Shown here: piece after piece, positions 55,770 through 62,247 of the stretch
Layout of the letters: each line of letters opens with the position of its first letter
Numbering within the stretch: the stretch's first letter is position 1
Assembly: GCA_041752595.1 (NCBI GenBank)
Contig: JBGSWE010000004.1
Coordinates: forward strand, 87,057 to 151,056
Source: Candidatus Saccharimonadales bacterium
GTDB lineage: Bacteria; Patescibacteriota; Saccharimonadia; Saccharimonadales; JACDBH01
Direction of reading: 5' to 3'
DNA: 64,000 nt
Position numbers and translations under genes: made by a program
The notes under the pieces: generated by a model
Told to the model about the DNA's origin: nothing
The model's input: only the letters and a program-made list of their open reading frames with translations
The model's database searches: none

Positions 55770-56510
55770 TTACTTTGTCTTGGCCTTTGCTTTGGGATAC
55801 ATTTTTATAGGCTTTTCGGTAGAAACTGGTTCTTCGAATTCCATTGAAGCCACCGAGAATTCATTACTCATTGCAAGTGGAGCAATTTTAAATACTTCAG
55901 GCAAGATGTTTGTGTGATCAAGCCTGCACCAGTGTAGCTTTCCGTATCTTGTTTCTAGTCCCTCTAGTCTTGACTTTGGTCCTTCATACTTCATTCTATA
56001 AATAAAGGCTATCGCATGCACAAAGGTGTCTTTAGATTCTGCCTCAAGATAGCGAAAATCTAGTACTGATGTTAACTGAAGATGGTCAATTGTTTCGATT
56101 GTTGTTTTTTCGAACAATTCCCTTTGAGCAGCTTCTTGCAGGGTTTCGTTTTGGTGAATCAGTCCAGAAGGTAATCCGTAAAGATTTTTGAAAGGCTGAT
56201 TATGACGTTTAACAAGCAATACCTGATCATTCTTATTTGTAATATAAATCATTGATATAGTACGAGGACCAACTTTCCTAGCGCCTTGTGCCTGTTCGAA
56301 GTGTATTGTTTTTAATGCTTTTCTAGTGGCGTGATATCCGTCTGACTCTAGACGAACATATTCCTTCTCTAATAATTTTTTGAGGTGATAAGAAAAGGTA
56401 TTGTTTGGCATTCCTGGTGGCAAAAGTTGAGAGAATCTTAATGGGGCATTCTTAGCTAGGCTTGTAATAATGCGTCTTTGTATAAAATGCATGTTCGAAT
56501 TATCTTGCAT
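55770..56510 (-). CDS. winged-helix (N-terminal) + Nudix-fold (C-terminal) protein with degenerate Nudix box; probable regulator
   Basis: N-terminal IITSLAKNAPLRFSQLL...NTFSYHLKKLLEKEYV (wHTH-like). The Nudix box GLIHQNETLQEAAQRELFEKTTI fits Gx5Ex7REUxE but has K and T where the consensus has the second E and G. Confidence 0.65.
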   Translation of the reverse strand: MQDNSNMHFIQRRIITSLAKNAPLRFSQLLPPGMPNNTFSYHLKKLLEKEYVRLESDGYHATRKALKTIHFEQAQGARKVGPRTISMIYITNKNDQVLLVKRHNQPFKNLYGLPSGLIHQNETLQEAAQRELFEKTTIETIDHLQLTSVLDFRYLEAESKDTFVHAIAFIYRMKYEGPKSRLEGLETRYGKLHWCRLDHTNILPEVFKIAPLAMSNEFSVASMEFEEPVSTEKPIKMYPKAKAKTK

Positions 56511-56598
56511 AATTCGGCAGCCATAACTCGTGGTTCAGGGTGTTCACCTTCATATAATTAACTATATTCTATCACTCTTAGAAAATGCTGTATATATA

Positions 56599-56680
56599 AG
56601 TCAAATTAAACTGACTCATTGTTGTTTGACTCTATATATCATGACTCATTTAATTTTGTGTCAACGAGACTAGAGTCAAT
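56599..56680. promoter_or_regulatory. divergent-promoter region with phased TGACTC repeats (candidate operator array)
   Basis: TGACTC occurs at 56612-56617, 56627-56632 and 56642-56647, an exact 15-bp spacing. The outer two extend to TGACTCATT. An inverted copy (AGAGTCA) lies at 56672-56678 and AAGTCA at 56599-56603. A TATATAT element lies between copies. Confidence 0.4.
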
Positions 56681-56774
56681 ATTTAACGACTGCAATCAAT
56701 GTCGAGCTAAGTTAATAATATTCCATGAACGGGAAAGCATATTCAAAAATTAACAAGTTTAGAATGAGGTATAA

Positions 56775-59621
56775 ATGTCTTATAACCCAGAACTAATCGA
56801 ACAAACAAACAGCCAAGTAGAAGTTGATATATTGGTTACTATATCCCCTGCCGAGTTTGAGTTGGACGTTGTAGATATTCTTGAATCAGAAGAACTTTCA
56901 CAAGTTGAAAAAGCAGTCGAAGTATTAACTCTTTTTGGTTTTGTCAGCAAAGAGGATGAACGAGATTATGATGATATTCAGACAAAAGTACGACAGGAGG
57001 TTTTACCCGAATTATTAGGAGCGACAAGCTATAGAACTTTTGGTAGAGAAATTTCTAAAGCCCTTAGAAAAGGTTCTATAGACGTTGAAACTCTAGGAGA
57101 GCCAACAGTATCTCCGAACCTCGCTGATCTTCCTGCGATAGTACGTGATGAAGTGGTTAAAAGGTTTGCGGATGGAAAGTTAGTAAAATTAAAAGGTAAT
57201 AAAGACGAGACTACAACCCTTTCAATTGGCGCTTCTAAACAAGCAGTACGCAGCCTAGAAATGGGCGAGCTCGACACAGCCAGATATGTGAGACGCATAT
57301 TCTCTCAAGAGACAACAGAAGTTGAAACGCTAGATGATGTAAAAAAACTATACGAAGAACACAACACAGAGCGTCGTATTCAGCAGATCAGAATAAAAAC
57401 CGACAAACCTTCTGCGAGTATTCTACCTATTAACGAAATGCGCGTTGGGCACCAAGATGGTTTACCTGGTATAAAATTAGTAGAATCATGGGCTGAAGGG
57501 CTCAAAACAGCACCAGAAGCCGATAAGCCTAGTGCGATATTGGTAGCTAACTTAGTTCAAGGCGATTTTGCTCATTCTCAATCAAAGAAACGGGCATCAC
57601 TTGTCACCGGTCTTGAAACTATGACAAATCAGTTCAAGACAGCAAAAATCATCCTTGATAAACTAAAAGAGACTGGAATACCAGTGATTTTATCACTTGG
57701 TGCAGATGATCATCGGATGGCACACGACTATACGCTCGACGTTGTTGCTGAACTTAGAAAATTTGCAACAGGCGGCGACAATCTAATAACTTATTACAAC
57801 CAAAACAAACTACTTCAATCAGAAACTTTCCAGCATCACAAAAAGTTCCAGATTCAATATATGTTGCCGCTTTGCTATACGCTTGGAAGGAGACTCAGAA
57901 CAGCAGATGAAATGTCTGATGCCACTGACGGTGAAATATCCCGAAGTGAATATTTGATGCTTTATGACCATATCGTAATGAGAGAGCCTTTGCACCCAGG
58001 GGTTGGCGTAGACGAAGAAGCCTTAAAAGGCTTGGGTGAATGGTACAAAGATATTGTAGTCGTTGACGACGCGGATATTGTAATTGAAACAGAAGGTCAA
58101 GAACGACTTTACCGCTATCGACATACTGAGTCTTTTTCGCCTGAAACACTAACTTCAAATCATTCTGACGTTGTTATGAAAATGCTTGGTAATTTGGGTG
58201 CAAATGGATTTGATTTGCCCGACGCCTCAATTACAGGCCGTGGCCAAGAAGCAATATATGTAACTGCAAGTGGAGTACCTGTTGTTACCCTACCCGGTCT
58301 TACCGATCCTACCGAGTCACTTAATTCAAGCCAATACTACAGAATGATTCCTGGTGATCCTTCCCTGCGTGCCAATGCCCTACGTAAAAGGCCTTGGACT
58401 CCTCTAATAGACCAATTTTCAATTGAAGATAATGGTGATGTTGTTCATAGATACATAAACAAAGAGTTTCTTGATAAGGCAGACAGTTTGCCGCGCACAG
58501 CTATTTTTGAGTTATGCGATATTCAAAAGGGCTCACCCACTGCTCGCTCAGATTATTTCGTACAGTACTTATCCTACATTTTAGAGACTGCAGAGAGAAT
58601 GCCGGTTGCTTTGCAGTGGGCGGGTGACATCATTCATGGACATATATACTCTAACTTTTCAGATGAATCACAAGCTGTAGGGCTAATACGAATTTCTTCG
58701 CAAAAACTTGTTATTGAAGAATATATGATGAAAGCATTTGGGCATGCTAATGTGCCACGCGAGCTTCTAGATGCAGTAATTGATGTGTTGGTTCAACAAG
58801 GTAACCACGACGAAATTCAAAGAAAGAATGTACCAAACAACAATGACTCAAATATTGACTATCTAATCAACACATCTAAGAGGATATTTGATCGAGATGG
58901 TGAGCAATCTAGAGTTCGCCATAATGCAATTTTCCACACTCCTGGTGGAACTCCAGTACCTACTTGGATGGGTACAACACATCTTGGTGCTTACACTCTT
59001 AAGACAGCACACTATCACATAGAGCGCGGCATGAAGGGTAATTCAGGCGGACTTCCCCTCTACCATCCTTATCAACGAATTCAGGGGCTTGGAAATGAAG
59101 AACAGGCTGATGTTTACTTAGGCGCTCACTGGCATAACGAACAGGCTGGTGTAATCGGCAAGAAACTTGTAGTGATCGGTGGGGCTTGGGCAGAAAGGTC
59201 TGAATTCGAAGATAGACGTGGTTATGATGCAAAGCTTGCGGGAACAGTTATATTCCTAGGAGGCGGCGAACCGCCAGAAGTTAGATTTGTTCATACACAA
59301 AATCTTGATAATAGACCTGTAAAATATGGATACTTCACTCCGGAAAGTTTAGAAGCAGAAGGCTACCGAGACGACCCAGGCTTTGATCCTACGAAACACG
59401 CGCAGTATTCAAATGACGCCTGGCCAAAAAGTGCTATCCAAAAAGCTCTAAACGACATTGAACGAAGAGCCAGTCAGCTAGTGGAATACGAAGCAGTAAT
59501 GGACAATCCTAATATGTATGATTTGGAAGGAAGACCAACTCAACTTAACGACGCAACCAGGCGCGCTTTCTTGTTTGGCCAAACAGCAGTCAAAGCTAGT
59601 AAACGAACTAAAAAAGGTTAG
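56775..59621 (+). CDS. large unknown protein (948 aa) with C-terminal calcineurin-like metallophosphoesterase motif set
   Basis: GAGG RBS. The C-terminal third carries ordered MPE-type motifs: LCDIQKG (D-x-[H/Q]), AGDIIHGH (GDxxH), QGNHDE (GNHD/E), TAHYH and GAHWH (GHxH-like). The N-terminal roughly 570 aa is unassigned; it contains only a weak GDFAH...GADDH echo. Confidence 0.6.
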   Translation: MSYNPELIEQTNSQVEVDILVTISPAEFELDVVDILESEELSQVEKAVEVLTLFGFVSKEDERDYDDIQTKVRQEVLPELLGATSYRTFGREISKALRKGSIDVETLGEPTVSPNLADLPAIVRDEVVKRFADGKLVKLKGNKDETTTLSIGASKQAVRSLEMGELDTARYVRRIFSQETTEVETLDDVKKLYEEHNTERRIQQIRIKTDKPSASILPINEMRVGHQDGLPGIKLVESWAEGLKTAPEADKPSAILVANLVQGDFAHSQSKKRASLVTGLETMTNQFKTAKIILDKLKETGIPVILSLGADDHRMAHDYTLDVVAELRKFATGGDNLITYYNQNKLLQSETFQHHKKFQIQYMLPLCYTLGRRLRTADEMSDATDGEISRSEYLMLYDHIVMREPLHPGVGVDEEALKGLGEWYKDIVVVDDADIVIETEGQERLYRYRHTESFSPETLTSNHSDVVMKMLGNLGANGFDLPDASITGRGQEAIYVTASGVPVVTLPGLTDPTESLNSSQYYRMIPGDPSLRANALRKRPWTPLIDQFSIEDNGDVVHRYINKEFLDKADSLPRTAIFELCDIQKGSPTARSDYFVQYLSYILETAERMPVALQWAGDIIHGHIYSNFSDESQAVGLIRISSQKLVIEEYMMKAFGHANVPRELLDAVIDVLVQQGNHDEIQRKNVPNNNDSNIDYLINTSKRIFDRDGEQSRVRHNAIFHTPGGTPVPTWMGTTHLGAYTLKTAHYHIERGMKGNSGGLPLYHPYQRIQGLGNEEQADVYLGAHWHNEQAGVIGKKLVVIGGAWAERSEFEDRRGYDAKLAGTVIFLGGGEPPEVRFVHTQNLDNRPVKYGYFTPESLEAEGYRDDPGFDPTKHAQYSNDAWPKSAIQKALNDIERRASQLVEYEAVMDNPNMYDLEGRPTQLNDATRRAFLFGQTAVKASKRTKKG

Positions 59622-59625
59622 TTAT

Positions 59626-60576
59626 ATGAGAATAGGCATACTGTCTGCATCTCCAAAAGGCGAACATTTCGAAAGTAATGCTCGCCTCATTGAGGAAGCT
59701 CATAAGGCTGGTGCCGAAGCAACAATAATAAACTACAAAAGAACTGTTGCTGCGATTACTGGGTATGGTAGACAATTATTGCAAGTCACTAAGGATGGTT
59801 CGCTTGAGCCAGTAGAAGTAGATGTAATAATCCCAAGAATTGGTAATGATGTTGAGCCAGGAGTTCGTGCCATTGATGTACTGACTTCTAACGGTATTCC
59901 CACTACTGCCCCATCAAGTGCAGTAATAATGGCTAAAGACAAATTTGCTTCACTAGTTCAACTAGATAGAGGAGGAATTCCAGTTCCCTTTACTGTTGCA
60001 CCAACTGGAAAAACTCCAAATAATTCATCAAAAATGATCGAACTAATACAACCCGATAGAACAAAGCCAATGATAGTAAAATCACTCCGCGGCTCGAAAG
60101 GTCGTGGAGTGTTTATCTCCGAGTCTCGTCGTTCGGTTAAATCACAAGTAGAAGGTCTGGCAAGTAATGGTGTTGACTATCTTTTGCAAGAATACATAGA
60201 GCCACCCTCAACCGATAAACGCGCTTCCGATGTACGCATTATCGTGATTAATGGAGAAGTTGTAGCTGCAATGGAAAGGACTGCATCAAATGATGATGAG
60301 TTTAGGTCAAACCTAGATTTAGGCGGTGAAGCACATGCATATGATCCTACTCTTCGCGAGAGAGAAATCGCACTGCGCTCTGCAGAAATTATTGGTGCCC
60401 GTGTCGTTGGTTTTGATGGAATGCATTCGTATAGAGGTATGCTTGCAACAGAAGTTAATGTTAATCCAGGATTAGGAATTGAACAAGTTACAGGAGTTAA
60501 TGTCGCGGGTGCGATTATAGAGCATGCAATATTTTTAGCCGAACAAAAACACGCATGGGGAGTTGATGGTGTTTAA
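59626..60576 (+). CDS. RimK-family ATP-grasp ligase (alpha-L-glutamate ligase-like)
   Basis: Track ORF is 59518..60576. The likely start is MRIGILSAS at 59626, 4 nt after the upstream stop. ATP-grasp pattern: MIVKSLRGSKGRGVFI, LLQEYIE, DVRIIVINGEVVAAMER...EFRSNLDLGGEA, EVNVNPG. Confidence 0.8.
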   Translation: MRIGILSASPKGEHFESNARLIEEAHKAGAEATIINYKRTVAAITGYGRQLLQVTKDGSLEPVEVDVIIPRIGNDVEPGVRAIDVLTSNGIPTTAPSSAVIMAKDKFASLVQLDRGGIPVPFTVAPTGKTPNNSSKMIELIQPDRTKPMIVKSLRGSKGRGVFISESRRSVKSQVEGLASNGVDYLLQEYIEPPSTDKRASDVRIIVINGEVVAAMERTASNDDEFRSNLDLGGEAHAYDPTLREREIALRSAEIIGARVVGFDGMHSYRGMLATEVNVNPGLGIEQVTGVNVAGAIIEHAIFLAEQKHAWGVDGV

Positions 60577-61417
60577 CGTTGTTAGTCAAACTGCTGATAG
60601 ACATGTTGTAATTCCGGATTTACACGGCGAGCACGTTATTGCAGAACAAGCAGTTGATAGGTATATAGACCAAGAAGATATAGGTTTTGTATTTTTGGGC
60701 GATGTGTTAGATAAAAAAGGCCTCGAACAAGATCATGATCAAGGAGTTCGCAGAACGCTAGAGTTAATCCGTTCTTTGGGAAACCGCGCGGTCCTTACAA
60801 TCGCTAACCACGAAATCTATGCTCTAGCTGCGATGTTTTCTAAACACAAAGCTGCTAAACAGGCGGCAACTGAACTATGGCTTGGAAACGCAGACTACTT
60901 AAGAATGGAGCGCAATACAGTATCTGCATACGACATTACTGAAAGAAGTGAAGAAACCCCTGAATTGTTCCGTTCAGCACTTGAAGAACATGGCCATCTA
61001 GATGTACTAATTAGTGCTACGCCCTACTTTGAAACCGATACATTTGTTGCACTTCACGCAGGAGTAATGCCACATGTTGATTGGCAAGAACAAAGAGATA
61101 CTTTAATTGATACAGCAAGAGATATGGCACATGGAATATACTTCGATACGCCACCGCAATGGTTTAGTCTGCCTCTTGCAGTAGATATAACACCTATTGA
61201 ATCAACCGATAAAATAGTTGTTACTGGGCATGCCCATTATTTGTCAGATTCAAGGAAAAGCTTCCTACATAAGAATACCAATTCGGAACGTTCTATTAAT
61301 GGTGGTAAAAGAATAAGGCTAGCCAGTATGCTCAATAATCCACAGAACGAAAACCTGTTCGTCTGGCAAGATTGGGACGGAGAAATTATTGAAATACCAA
61401 GAGACCAAGCATCATGA
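60566..61417 (+). CDS. PPP/ApaH-PrpE-like metallophosphoesterase
   Basis: Complete motif set: VIPDLHGEH (DxHG), FLGDVLDKKG (GDxxDxG), IANHEI (GNHE), LHAGV and VTGHAH (GHxH). It overlaps the end of the ATP-grasp gene. The exact start (TTG 60563, ATG 60566 or GTG 60569) is uncertain. Confidence 0.75.
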   Translation: MVFNVVSQTADRHVVIPDLHGEHVIAEQAVDRYIDQEDIGFVFLGDVLDKKGLEQDHDQGVRRTLELIRSLGNRAVLTIANHEIYALAAMFSKHKAAKQAATELWLGNADYLRMERNTVSAYDITERSEETPELFRSALEEHGHLDVLISATPYFETDTFVALHAGVMPHVDWQEQRDTLIDTARDMAHGIYFDTPPQWFSLPLAVDITPIESTDKIVVTGHAHYLSDSRKSFLHKNTNSERSINGGKRIRLASMLNNPQNENLFVWQDWDGEIIEIPRDQAS

Positions 61418-62247
61418 AAGAACGCATAGAGGCTCCTAGGTCTCAGTTTATGCAAACCGGCGAAACACCATCACTTAACTTAGAGTATTGTTTAACGGGC
61501 GAAGCTTATCATGGAGATGTTAAGTACGTAGACGAGGGAATAATCGGCGTCGGTGAAGATACGTTAATGTTCCTGCCTGAACACGGTTTGTTTGGGGTAT
61601 TTGATGGTGCAGGCGTAGCTTCTGACGTAGGAAGAGCTGACATAGCTAGTCAAACAGCTGCTAAAGCGGTTGCAGAATATTTTATCAACAATTTAGATAT
61701 AGAAAAAAGTAAACAATTTATGCAAGAAGCACTAACACATGCCCGCAAGGTAGTATCTGTTACCGAAGGAGCAGGTATTACAACAGGACTGTTTGTTCAC
61801 TTATCTGAATCCACAAACAAGAATCTAAGAGTGCTTTTTGGTTCCGCTGGAGACTGTGCTGCAGCCCTATATCCAGATCCAGTATTTGATGACCGTAGGT
61901 ATGAGGACGCATTATGGTTCGCCGGAGAACAAGATGATACACGCGGTACCCCAACAAACTTTATTGGTACAGAAAATTCTCGAGTAAAACGAGGAACATC
62001 TGATCAGGCTGGAGAGCTTAAATTGATTAGTAGGGATAAAAAACGGTGGTTGATAATTGCTACCGACGGTATTACGGGAAGTATAGGGCTATCTAATGGT
62101 ATTGATGAAGCGGATATAGAGTATGCATTTACCTACAAACACAATATTAAAAGTATCGCAGATTCATTAATTAATCCACCCCTTCAAAGAGACGAGTATC
62201 AACGAAAAGTTGACGACAAGACGCTCATAGTAATCGGTATAAATTAA
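61414..62247 (+). CDS. PP2C/PPM-family phosphatase-like protein
   Basis: LFGVFDGAGVASDVGRADIAS (compare DGMGGH..G..AS), IIATDGITG (compare SDGL) and VDDKTLIVIGI (compare DN-T-vvv). ATGA overlap with the upstream gene. Confidence 0.65.
   Translation: MKERIEAPRSQFMQTGETPSLNLEYCLTGEAYHGDVKYVDEGIIGVGEDTLMFLPEHGLFGVFDGAGVASDVGRADIASQTAAKAVAEYFINNLDIEKSKQFMQEALTHARKVVSVTEGAGITTGLFVHLSESTNKNLRVLFGSAGDCAAALYPDPVFDDRRYEDALWFAGEQDDTRGTPTNFIGTENSRVKRGTSDQAGELKLISRDKKRWLIIATDGITGSIGLSNGIDEADIEYAFTYKHNIKSIADSLINPPLQRDEYQRKVDDKTLIVIGIN

Follow-up and report, generated by a model that had tools for sequence, protein, structure and literature searches.

A phased array of TGA(C/G)TCA palindromes as the predicted operator region of a divergently encoded wHTH-Nudix protein in Saccharibacteria

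The stretch of DNA studied here, 64,000 nucleotides from contig JBGSWE010000004.1 of a Candidatus Saccharimonadales bacterium (in the following called the window), contains a regularly phased array of short palindromes. It is seated in a 264-bp gap separating two divergent transcription units, the gene of a winged helix-turn-helix (wHTH)-Nudix protein on the minus strand (55770-56510) and a four-gene operon on the plus strand (56775-62247), which is where a preliminary description of this sequence had placed it. Comparison of related loci makes it quite probable that this array serves as operator region for the neighbouring wHTH-Nudix protein, the predicted co-regulator of its own gene and of the four-gene phosphoesterase/RimK operon. 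The names of homologs assign the organism to Candidatus Saccharibacteria. The genes and the units of the array are:

55770-56510, minus strand: wHTH-Nudix regulator, 246 aa
56597-56603: core 1, TAAGTCA (reverse complement TGACTTA), one mismatch; regulator-side terminal site with the TTGAC half alone kept
56612-56618: core 2, TGACTCA, exact
56627-56633: core 3, TGACTCT, one mismatch
56642-56648: core 4, TGACTCA, exact
56657-56663: core 5, TGTGTCA, one mismatch
56672-56678: core 6, AGAGTCA, one mismatch
56686-56693, plus strand: in-phase terminal box, ACGACTGC; most relatives read GTGGCTGN
56775-59621, plus strand: first operon gene, 948-aa protein with a predicted calcineurin-like metallophosphoesterase fold and no family assignment
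59626-60576, plus strand: RimK-family ATP-grasp ligase (open reading frame listed from 59518)
60563-61417, plus strand: ApaH-like metallophosphatase, 284 aa, weak match; the homolog in locus L024 carries PF00149
61414-62247, plus strand: PP2C-like protein, 277 aa, weak match; final gene of the operon, the following genes being on the opposite strand

The unit of the array is the 7-bp palindrome TGA(C/G)TCA, and copies that look direct or inverted differ at the central base only. Six such cores, two of them exact and four with one mismatch, follow each other in an exact 15-bp register from 56597 to 56678, and a seventh half-site is found in phase at 56686-56693. Core 5 was overlooked in the preliminary description; close relatives read TGACTCA or TGAGTCA at its position. 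Core 1 lies 2 bp from the -35 hexamer of the regulator promoter, while the terminal box at the other end appears from its sequence to be an outward-facing half-site merged with the first bases of a weak operon -35. The preliminary description had read TGACTC on the plus strand at 56612, 56627 and 56642 in exact steps of 15 bp, the 9-mer TGACTCATT at the outer two copies (56612 and 56642) and AGAGTCA at 56672-56678, all of which are found in the sequence. The AAGTCA half-site that it reported is present as well, but at 56598-56603, since 56599-56603 spans AGTCA only. A TATATAT described as interleaved with the array does occur at 56633-56639, but we regard it as incidental because the spacers are not conserved. 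What had to be given up is the direct TGACTC repeat as the unit: the array consists of palindromic cores, which are most readily understood as overlapping STCAA-N6-TTGAS operators (S being C or G).

Counting the hexamer, a check proposed in the preliminary description, was uninformative when run on the window: TGACTC occurs 20 times against 21.5 +/- 4.5 expected and is therefore not enriched, and TGACTCATT is also found at chance frequency. The phased clustering, in contrast, is informative. Among 2000 sequences of 64 kb simulated with a third-order Markov model, not one had three copies at 15-bp spacing and only 15 had one pair; the analytic expectation for the triple is 2e-6. The local phasing and clustering is the signal, the hexamer frequency is not. 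Because the spacers between the array units are unlike one another and Tandem Repeats Finder reports no tandem repeat between 56400 and 56900, the array is not a recent tandem duplication. No other operators above the chance count were found within the 64-kb window, so that the regulon looks local. Inside the coding sequence of the regulator, TGACTCTAG (56343-56351) repeats 56670-56678 exactly over 9 nt in inverted orientation. Its distance of 269 bp from the core at 56612 puts it out of phase with the array, its codons (LESD) are not conserved in orthologs, and it is probably due to chance.

For the comparison we used 58 loci encoding relatives of the regulator, 20 of them taken from species-representative genomes, five from close relatives and 33 from metagenomes, so that together with the window 503 kb were scanned. 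At least one exact core is located 60-300 bp upstream of the regulator gene in 41 out of 42 non-redundant loci, usually as part of a 15-bp chain. Pairs of exact TGASTCA are separated by 15 bp in 52 cases, by 30 bp in 33, by 45 bp in 15 and by 60 bp in seven cases, whereas no other distance up to 60 bp is seen in more than four. All chains lie 93-232 bp upstream of the regulator start, and they are found nowhere else in the 503 kb. The number of cores per locus ranges from one to eight, three to four being most common, compared to six in the window. A logo of 132 in-phase sites from 41 non-redundant loci reads T-TGA-S-TCA-A with C and G at the centre in a ratio of 72:60, and the 6-nt spacer carries little information. 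The alignment of orthologous intergenic regions, also suggested in the preliminary description, gave a clear picture for the five closest ones: the cores are kept, the spacers diverge and the centre flips between C and G.

The genes on the other side of the array differ between loci. In 33 of the 58 loci the regulator faces a homolog of the 948-aa protein, in others a shorter metallophosphoesterase, and the array is present with either type of partner. Vice versa, where homologs of the 948-aa protein occur without the regulator, in three independent contexts (L089, L090/L091 and L092), no array is present upstream. In five distant homologs of the regulator (25-40% identity) the motif precedes, in every case, the regulator gene or the operon to which it belongs, as TGAGTCAattactgtTGACC, TGACTCAaattgattTGAGT, TTAGTCAaataatttTGACG, TGAGGCA-N8-TGAGTCA-N8-TGACT and TTACTCAaatcatttTGAGA, although the neighbouring genes are quite different ones (dUTPase/Tmk/dCTP deaminase/ThyX, a PRK-family kinase, an AAA_28 protein) and the G+C content ranges from 44 to 67%. 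In L093-L098 the operon genes differ or are missing. The regulator gene is the sole element common to every array-bearing locus, and because the array is kept next to differing neighbours and is absent without the regulator, we conclude that it follows the regulator gene. The earlier proposal that the array represents operators of the adjacent wHTH-Nudix protein is thus strongly backed by the 41 of 42 loci, the distant homologs, the regulator-less controls and the fact that neither the core motif nor the recognition helix of the protein varies within the family.

Some of these loci deserve a short description. The 700-aa homolog of the 948-aa protein in L089 (L089:1-8103; 31% identity) is surrounded by phage-like genes, among them a GH25 lysozyme, a PLD-family protein and numerous small open reading frames, and has neither regulator nor array. 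L093 (L093:1-5681; Candidatus Paceibacterota, 67% G+C) encodes a regulator homolog of 28% identity amid dUTPase, thymidylate kinase, dCTP deaminase and ThyX, and TGAGTCA-N8-TGACC precedes this homolog by about 50 bp; this context hints at a more general control of (deoxy)nucleotide metabolism by the superfamily. A subgroup with the short metallophosphoesterase (L004, L006, L009, L010, L012, L014, L048) has a conserved AAAGGGAGCG right after the -10 and, about 35-45 nt downstream of it in the leader, a GGGTGGCCACC(AC) palindrome or hairpin. This leader feature is absent from the window and may be a second regulatory element.

The regulator itself combines two domains. Its Nudix domain is well recognized (PF00293, E = 1.5e-15), the Pfam NUDIX match covering residues 84-200 and HTH-type matches residues 14-67. 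An AlphaFold2 model (mean predicted local distance difference test, pLDDT, of 88.8) consists of a winged helix (residues 9-61, with helices 9-21, 26-29 and 36-48 and a hairpin of strands 52-55 and 58-61), a linker helix (63-76) and a Nudix fold (83-226), and Foldseek finds many Nudix structures at probability 1.00. The winged-helix matches in Pfam stay below the curated cutoffs (DUF7347 23.7 versus 27.6 bits, HTH_20 16.3 versus 27 bits), and several homologs have precomputed PF24038 or PF12840 hits. No match in PDB or NCBIfam covers the wHTH of the regulator, the structural matches in PDB being confined to the Nudix part. The recognition helix NNTFSYHLKKL (PNNTFSYHLKKL) is invariant in 31 family members; in the wider superfamily alignment N37, Y41, H42 and L46 are invariant, and for the wHTH-Nudix proteins in general the helix can be written SNxFxYHLKxL.

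The Nudix box of the window protein reads G116-x5-E122-x7-R130-E131-L-F-E134-K135-T-T-I (G-x5-E-x7-RELFEKTTI) and departs from the complete box GX5EX7REUXEEXGU, as the EE pair has Lys in place of its second Glu and the Gly is missing. Among 19 aligned superfamily members R130 never varies and E131, E134 and K135 hardly do (at least 90% conserved), which gives a family box REUxEK. Hydrolysis by this box is probably impaired. As one catalytic Glu is lost family-wide, sensing rather than hydrolysis is suggested by analogy to the regulator NrtR, and the domain probably binds, but does not hydrolyse, a nucleotide-derived effector. The nucleotide nature of the effector is considered probable because the Nudix domain is nearest in sequence to the ADP-ribose (ADPR)-pyrophosphatase, NadM and NrtR group and because of the nucleotide-metabolism neighbours of its homologs. 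The family is a large one: a profile search, clustered at 50% identity, yields 765 clusters of wHTH-Nudix proteins at E <= 1e-10, of which 34 reach E <= 1e-30; most are 215-235 aa long and covered over both domains. Their source annotations say merely generic Nudix hydrolase. Literature searches on DUF7347, on Nudix proteins with an N-terminal winged helix and on Nudix in Saccharibacteria or Patescibacteria returned no description of the family; the one possibly pertinent item was a statement on an NrtR of S. sobrinus.

What such a protein would recognize can be read from the incomplete sites. At the regulator-side terminal site of 41 loci the TTGAC half alone is kept, with positions -1 to 4 conserved and an information content of about zero at positions 5-7, and the operon-side terminal box keeps its outward-facing half. 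The most distant loci keep single palindromes, namely CTCAAatcattTTGAG (L098), ACTCAAattgatTTGAGT and GTCAAttactgTTGAC; in CTCAAatcattTTGAG the outer halves of the cores have decayed. These terminal half-sites and single palindromes lead us to take the 16-bp inverted repeat STCAA-N6-TTGAS, which extends across a spacer, and not the core itself as the basic operator. An isolated single core, for comparison with GTCAA-N6-TTGAC, would be TTGACTCAA. The centres of the half-sites in STCAA-N6-TTGAS are 10 bp apart, which is the standard geometry for an HTH dimer, as in the phage 434 operator ACAA-N6-TTGT, while one dimer could not occupy the two half-sites within a core, only 5 bp apart. FNR/CRP-type boxes (TTGA-N6-TCAA) were considered and rejected, as the half-sites of the array face the opposite way (TCAA-N6-TTGA).

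With one dimer per STCAA-N6-TTGAS operator, successive operators would overlap by their central base, each TTGA-S-TCAA core supplying the right half of the operator before it and the left half of the operator after it, and it is this overlap that would impose the strict 15-bp period. Because 15 bp correspond to 1.4 helical turns, neighbouring dimers would come to lie on nearly opposite faces of the helix. The six cores and the terminal box in the window would offer about six dimer positions, and cooperative binding is plausible.

The array fills the space between the -35 regions of the two divergent promoters, and its ends overlap or abut them:

56566-56594, minus strand: regulator promoter, -35 TATACA (56594-56589), 17-nt spacer, extended -10 TGaTAGAAT ending at 56566, found by consensus scan
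56690-56718, plus strand: putative operon promoter, -35-like CTGCAA (56690-56695), 17-nt spacer, -10 TAATAA (56713-56718; or AATAAT shifted by one base)

GACAA and TGnTA blocks of the regulator promoter are conserved in close relatives. The operon promoter was not called by the strict consensus scan and was deduced from an anchored alignment of relatives and from a conserved block in the close ones. In about 35 non-redundant loci the operon strand shows one fixed succession, with the first core followed after 7 nt by the box GTGGCTG (in the window ACGACTGC) and, after another 17 nt, by a (T/C)ATAAT-like hexamer. This fixed geometry makes the box overlap a weak -35 (CTGnnn). Occupancy of the array would control both promoters at once, and a ligand bound by the Nudix domain would alter the affinity for DNA. 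We favour repression relieved by the ligand as the more likely sign of regulation, because the sites coincide with -35 hexamers and because of the NrtR precedent (PMC2330246).

Several observations do not sit easily with this picture. The array in the window is fairly degenerate, with only two of the six cores exact and the flanking T/A often absent. The operon-side box shows conservation at more positions (CAG(C/T)CA) than expected from a plain half-site; we ascribe this to the overlap with the -35, but another factor may be involved. On the regulator side clades differ in their geometry: the terminal half-site or a full core is the -35 in several of them and in one a 10-bp gap lies between, so that there is no single repression geometry for autoregulation. 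A weak -35, as found in the operon promoter, is commonly seen where transcription depends on an activator. Finally, for a regulator homolog of 50% identity in L032/L033 no clear site could be recognised in the available 218 bp of upstream sequence. Only the degenerate ATAGTCA and TAGACTA are present there (L032:1-218, L033:1-189), and the operator may have decayed or been relocated.

The points on promoter strength and geometry bear on the question whether the same protein, bound at the same sites, activates the operon instead. The box would then be a class II site at the weak -35 and the upstream cores would serve for cooperative loading, the ligand either promoting or relieving activation. 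Such a role would fit the combination of a good -10 with a poor -35 (CTGnnn) in the operon promoter and the strictly fixed distance at which the in-phase box is held in about 35 loci, at about -40 to -33. It would also suit L003, L008, L015 and L036, where the centre of the last core precedes the regulator -35 by about 20 bp, a position better suited for activation than for occlusion. However, a core or half-site coincides with the -35 of the regulator promoter in many loci, which favours occlusion there, and up to eight sites filling the gap between two -35 elements resemble the coating by a repressor. Furthermore, NrtR and AraR, the only Nudix-domain regulators known to be characterised, are repressors released by their ligands (PMC2330246). 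We therefore consider activation to be unlikely, but still an alternative to be taken seriously beside the favoured ligand-relieved repression.

Much less likely is that another factor binds the array (a global regulator, an alternative sigma factor reading a TTGAC-like -35, or a protein encoded in the operon) and that the wHTH-Nudix protein is a bystander. It is true that TTGAC(T) fits the sigma-70 -35 consensus, that the terminal sites fall on -35 positions and that the operon-side box has its extra conservation. But the regulator is the only gene shared by all array-bearing loci, down to L093-L098 with their different or absent operon genes, and the array is missing where the gene for the 948-aa protein occurs without it. 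Sites of a global factor would be expected elsewhere, yet there is no other chain in the 64-kb window or in about 440 kb of related loci, and neither a strict 15-bp register nor a palindromic TCAA extension is a property of -35 clusters.

Still less probable, and rejected, is an explanation by nucleic-acid structure, in which the element would work through leader-RNA hairpins, a cruciform or bent DNA and not as a protein-binding array. The region 56590-56700 does fold somewhat better than shuffled sequence on both strands (z = -2.45 and -2.63), but repeated palindromic cores would give such extra stability anyway, and as the array lies upstream of both putative promoters it is probably not transcribed. 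Arrays in which all centres are the same (L003 and L036, three times TGACTCA) cannot form the same hairpins, core numbers vary from one to eight, and it is the sequence itself that is conserved, not compensatory pairs. A search of Rfam with 56300-57000 gave no match at E <= 1.

A chance cluster or a decayed, functionless remnant of a 15-bp tandem duplication, for which one could cite the chance frequency of the hexamer in the window and the perfect 15-mer tandem repeats with TGASTCA that exist as coding repeats in unrelated viral contigs, is effectively refuted by the comparative data, as none of the 2000 simulations gave the triple, the spacers are unrelated and phased cores persist in over 40 loci, at protein identities as low as 25%. 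The viral sequences are 30 viral or giant-virus contigs (L059-L088) in which at least three TGASTCA follow each other every 15 bp; in each case the sites belong to perfect 15-mer tandem repeats, most of which encode pentapeptide repeats. None of the contigs has a homolog of the regulator or of the 948-aa protein, and they have no bearing on the regulator system.

The first product of the predicted target operon, the 948-aa protein, has no sequence match in Pfam, NCBIfam or PDB and is placed among the calcineurin-like metallophosphoesterases solely by its predicted fold. The RimK-like open reading frame as listed overlaps the end of this gene by 104 nt; because the relatives are 313-316 aa long, the start is probably the ATG at 59626 (MRIGIL...), 5 nt past the upstream stop. 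Homologs of the ApaH-like metallophosphatase were also found in L016, L017 and L020. PADLOC did not assign the operon to a defence system. The flanks consist of chromosomal housekeeping genes (ABC transporter, YggT, acyltransferase and COX genes). Iterons or partition centromeres of a plasmid were rejected as an explanation of the array, as neither the window nor the related loci contain a Rep or Par gene and the flanks are chromosomal. L021-L024, the closest relatives, have the regulator locus beside the heme-copper oxidase genes COX1-COX4, and L024 also shares the ABC transporter and YggT genes of the window. Aerobic respiratory genes in Saccharibacteria possibly deserve separate attention.

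Transcriptional regulation in Saccharibacteria and other Patescibacteria is nearly unexplored, and most members are unculturable. A regulator-operator pair could be proposed here from comparative genomics alone, with a grammar of STCAA-N6-TTGAS operators on a 15-bp lattice between two divergent -35 regions. Proteins annotated generically as NUDIX hydrolases would accordingly have to be seen as probable transcription factors, tied to phosphoesterase and nucleotide-metabolism genes. We tentatively extend this to the view, possible but still short of an even chance, that the wHTH-Nudix proteins are uncharacterised nucleotide-sensing transcription factors, largely specific for Patescibacteria (candidate phyla radiation, CPR), which bind as a helical file of dimers on the 15-bp lattice and act as a main switch of nucleotide scavenging and turnover. 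If true, phosphoesterases, dUTPase/Tmk/ThyX and nucleoside kinases would be under this switch in obligate epibionts without de novo nucleotide synthesis, and the motif would be the first transferable regulon rule for Patescibacteria. The lattice of overlapping operators, with one to eight units, would be an unusual and tractable model for the cooperative coating of divergent promoters.

Comparing the regulator with known systems, NrtR comes first. NrtR proteins have an N-terminal Nudix domain followed by a C-terminal wHTH and bind a 21-bp palindromic operator with a GT-N7-AC core; AraR of Bacteroides is included in this family (PMC2330246, 2008). Common to both are the one-component design, a Nudix-fold effector domain with a degenerate box joined to a winged helix, and a gene located beside the targets, and the logic is likely to be similar, a ligand in the Nudix pocket shifting the affinity for DNA; for NrtR it is ADP-ribose that weakens the binding. 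Nevertheless, membership in NrtR was rejected on domain order, model score and operator. In the window protein the order is reversed, with the wHTH N-terminal and the Nudix domain C-terminal, and the wHTH is of a different type, with sub-threshold similarity to DUF7347 and HTH_20. With the NCBIfam model NF050029 ("ADPR responsive transcriptional repressor NtrR") the score is 31.9 bits, where the cutoff is 400, and the match covers the Nudix part only; alignment with the PDB chains of NrtR and AraR is likewise limited to the Nudix core. The predicted operator is STCAA-N6-TTGAS in 15-bp phased arrays and not the 21-bp GT-N7-AC palindrome, and the predicted targets are phosphoesterase and nucleotide-metabolism genes and not genes of NAD synthesis. 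An NrtR of S. sobrinus has been described with an N-terminal wHTH (PMC12735969) and may be a characterised relative. The wHTH-Nudix protein is best read as an independent fusion. It would then be a second case, after NrtR, in which a Nudix domain was recruited as the predicted ligand sensor of a DNA-binding domain.

The operator type itself resembles the classical operators of HTH dimers, with half-sites spaced by one helical turn, such as that of phage 434, where the operators are separate sites with variable gaps. Both are 14-16-bp inverted repeats with half-sites of 4-5 bp, a 6-bp non-specific AT-rich spacer and several operators between divergent promoters, but the putative operators in the window overlap by one base, which would produce the strict 15-bp lattice with up to eight cores. 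TGA(C/G)TCA is also the AP-1/GCN4 site of eukaryotic basic leucine zipper (bZIP) factors. The 7-bp sequence is identical, but this is coincidence only, as bZIP proteins are absent here and the core would consist of abutting half-sites of neighbouring operators. Arrays of short palindromic units are furthermore known from MetJ, whose met-boxes are abutting 8-bp palindromes, and from Fur, whose boxes are overlapping repeats with dimers on opposite faces of the DNA. As in these systems the number of units varies while the register is kept, and side-by-side dimers on different faces are implied. The period differs (15 bp instead of 8 bp for MetJ and 6 bp for Fur), a winged helix would take the place of the ribbon-helix-helix or Fur fold, and the effector domain is another one.

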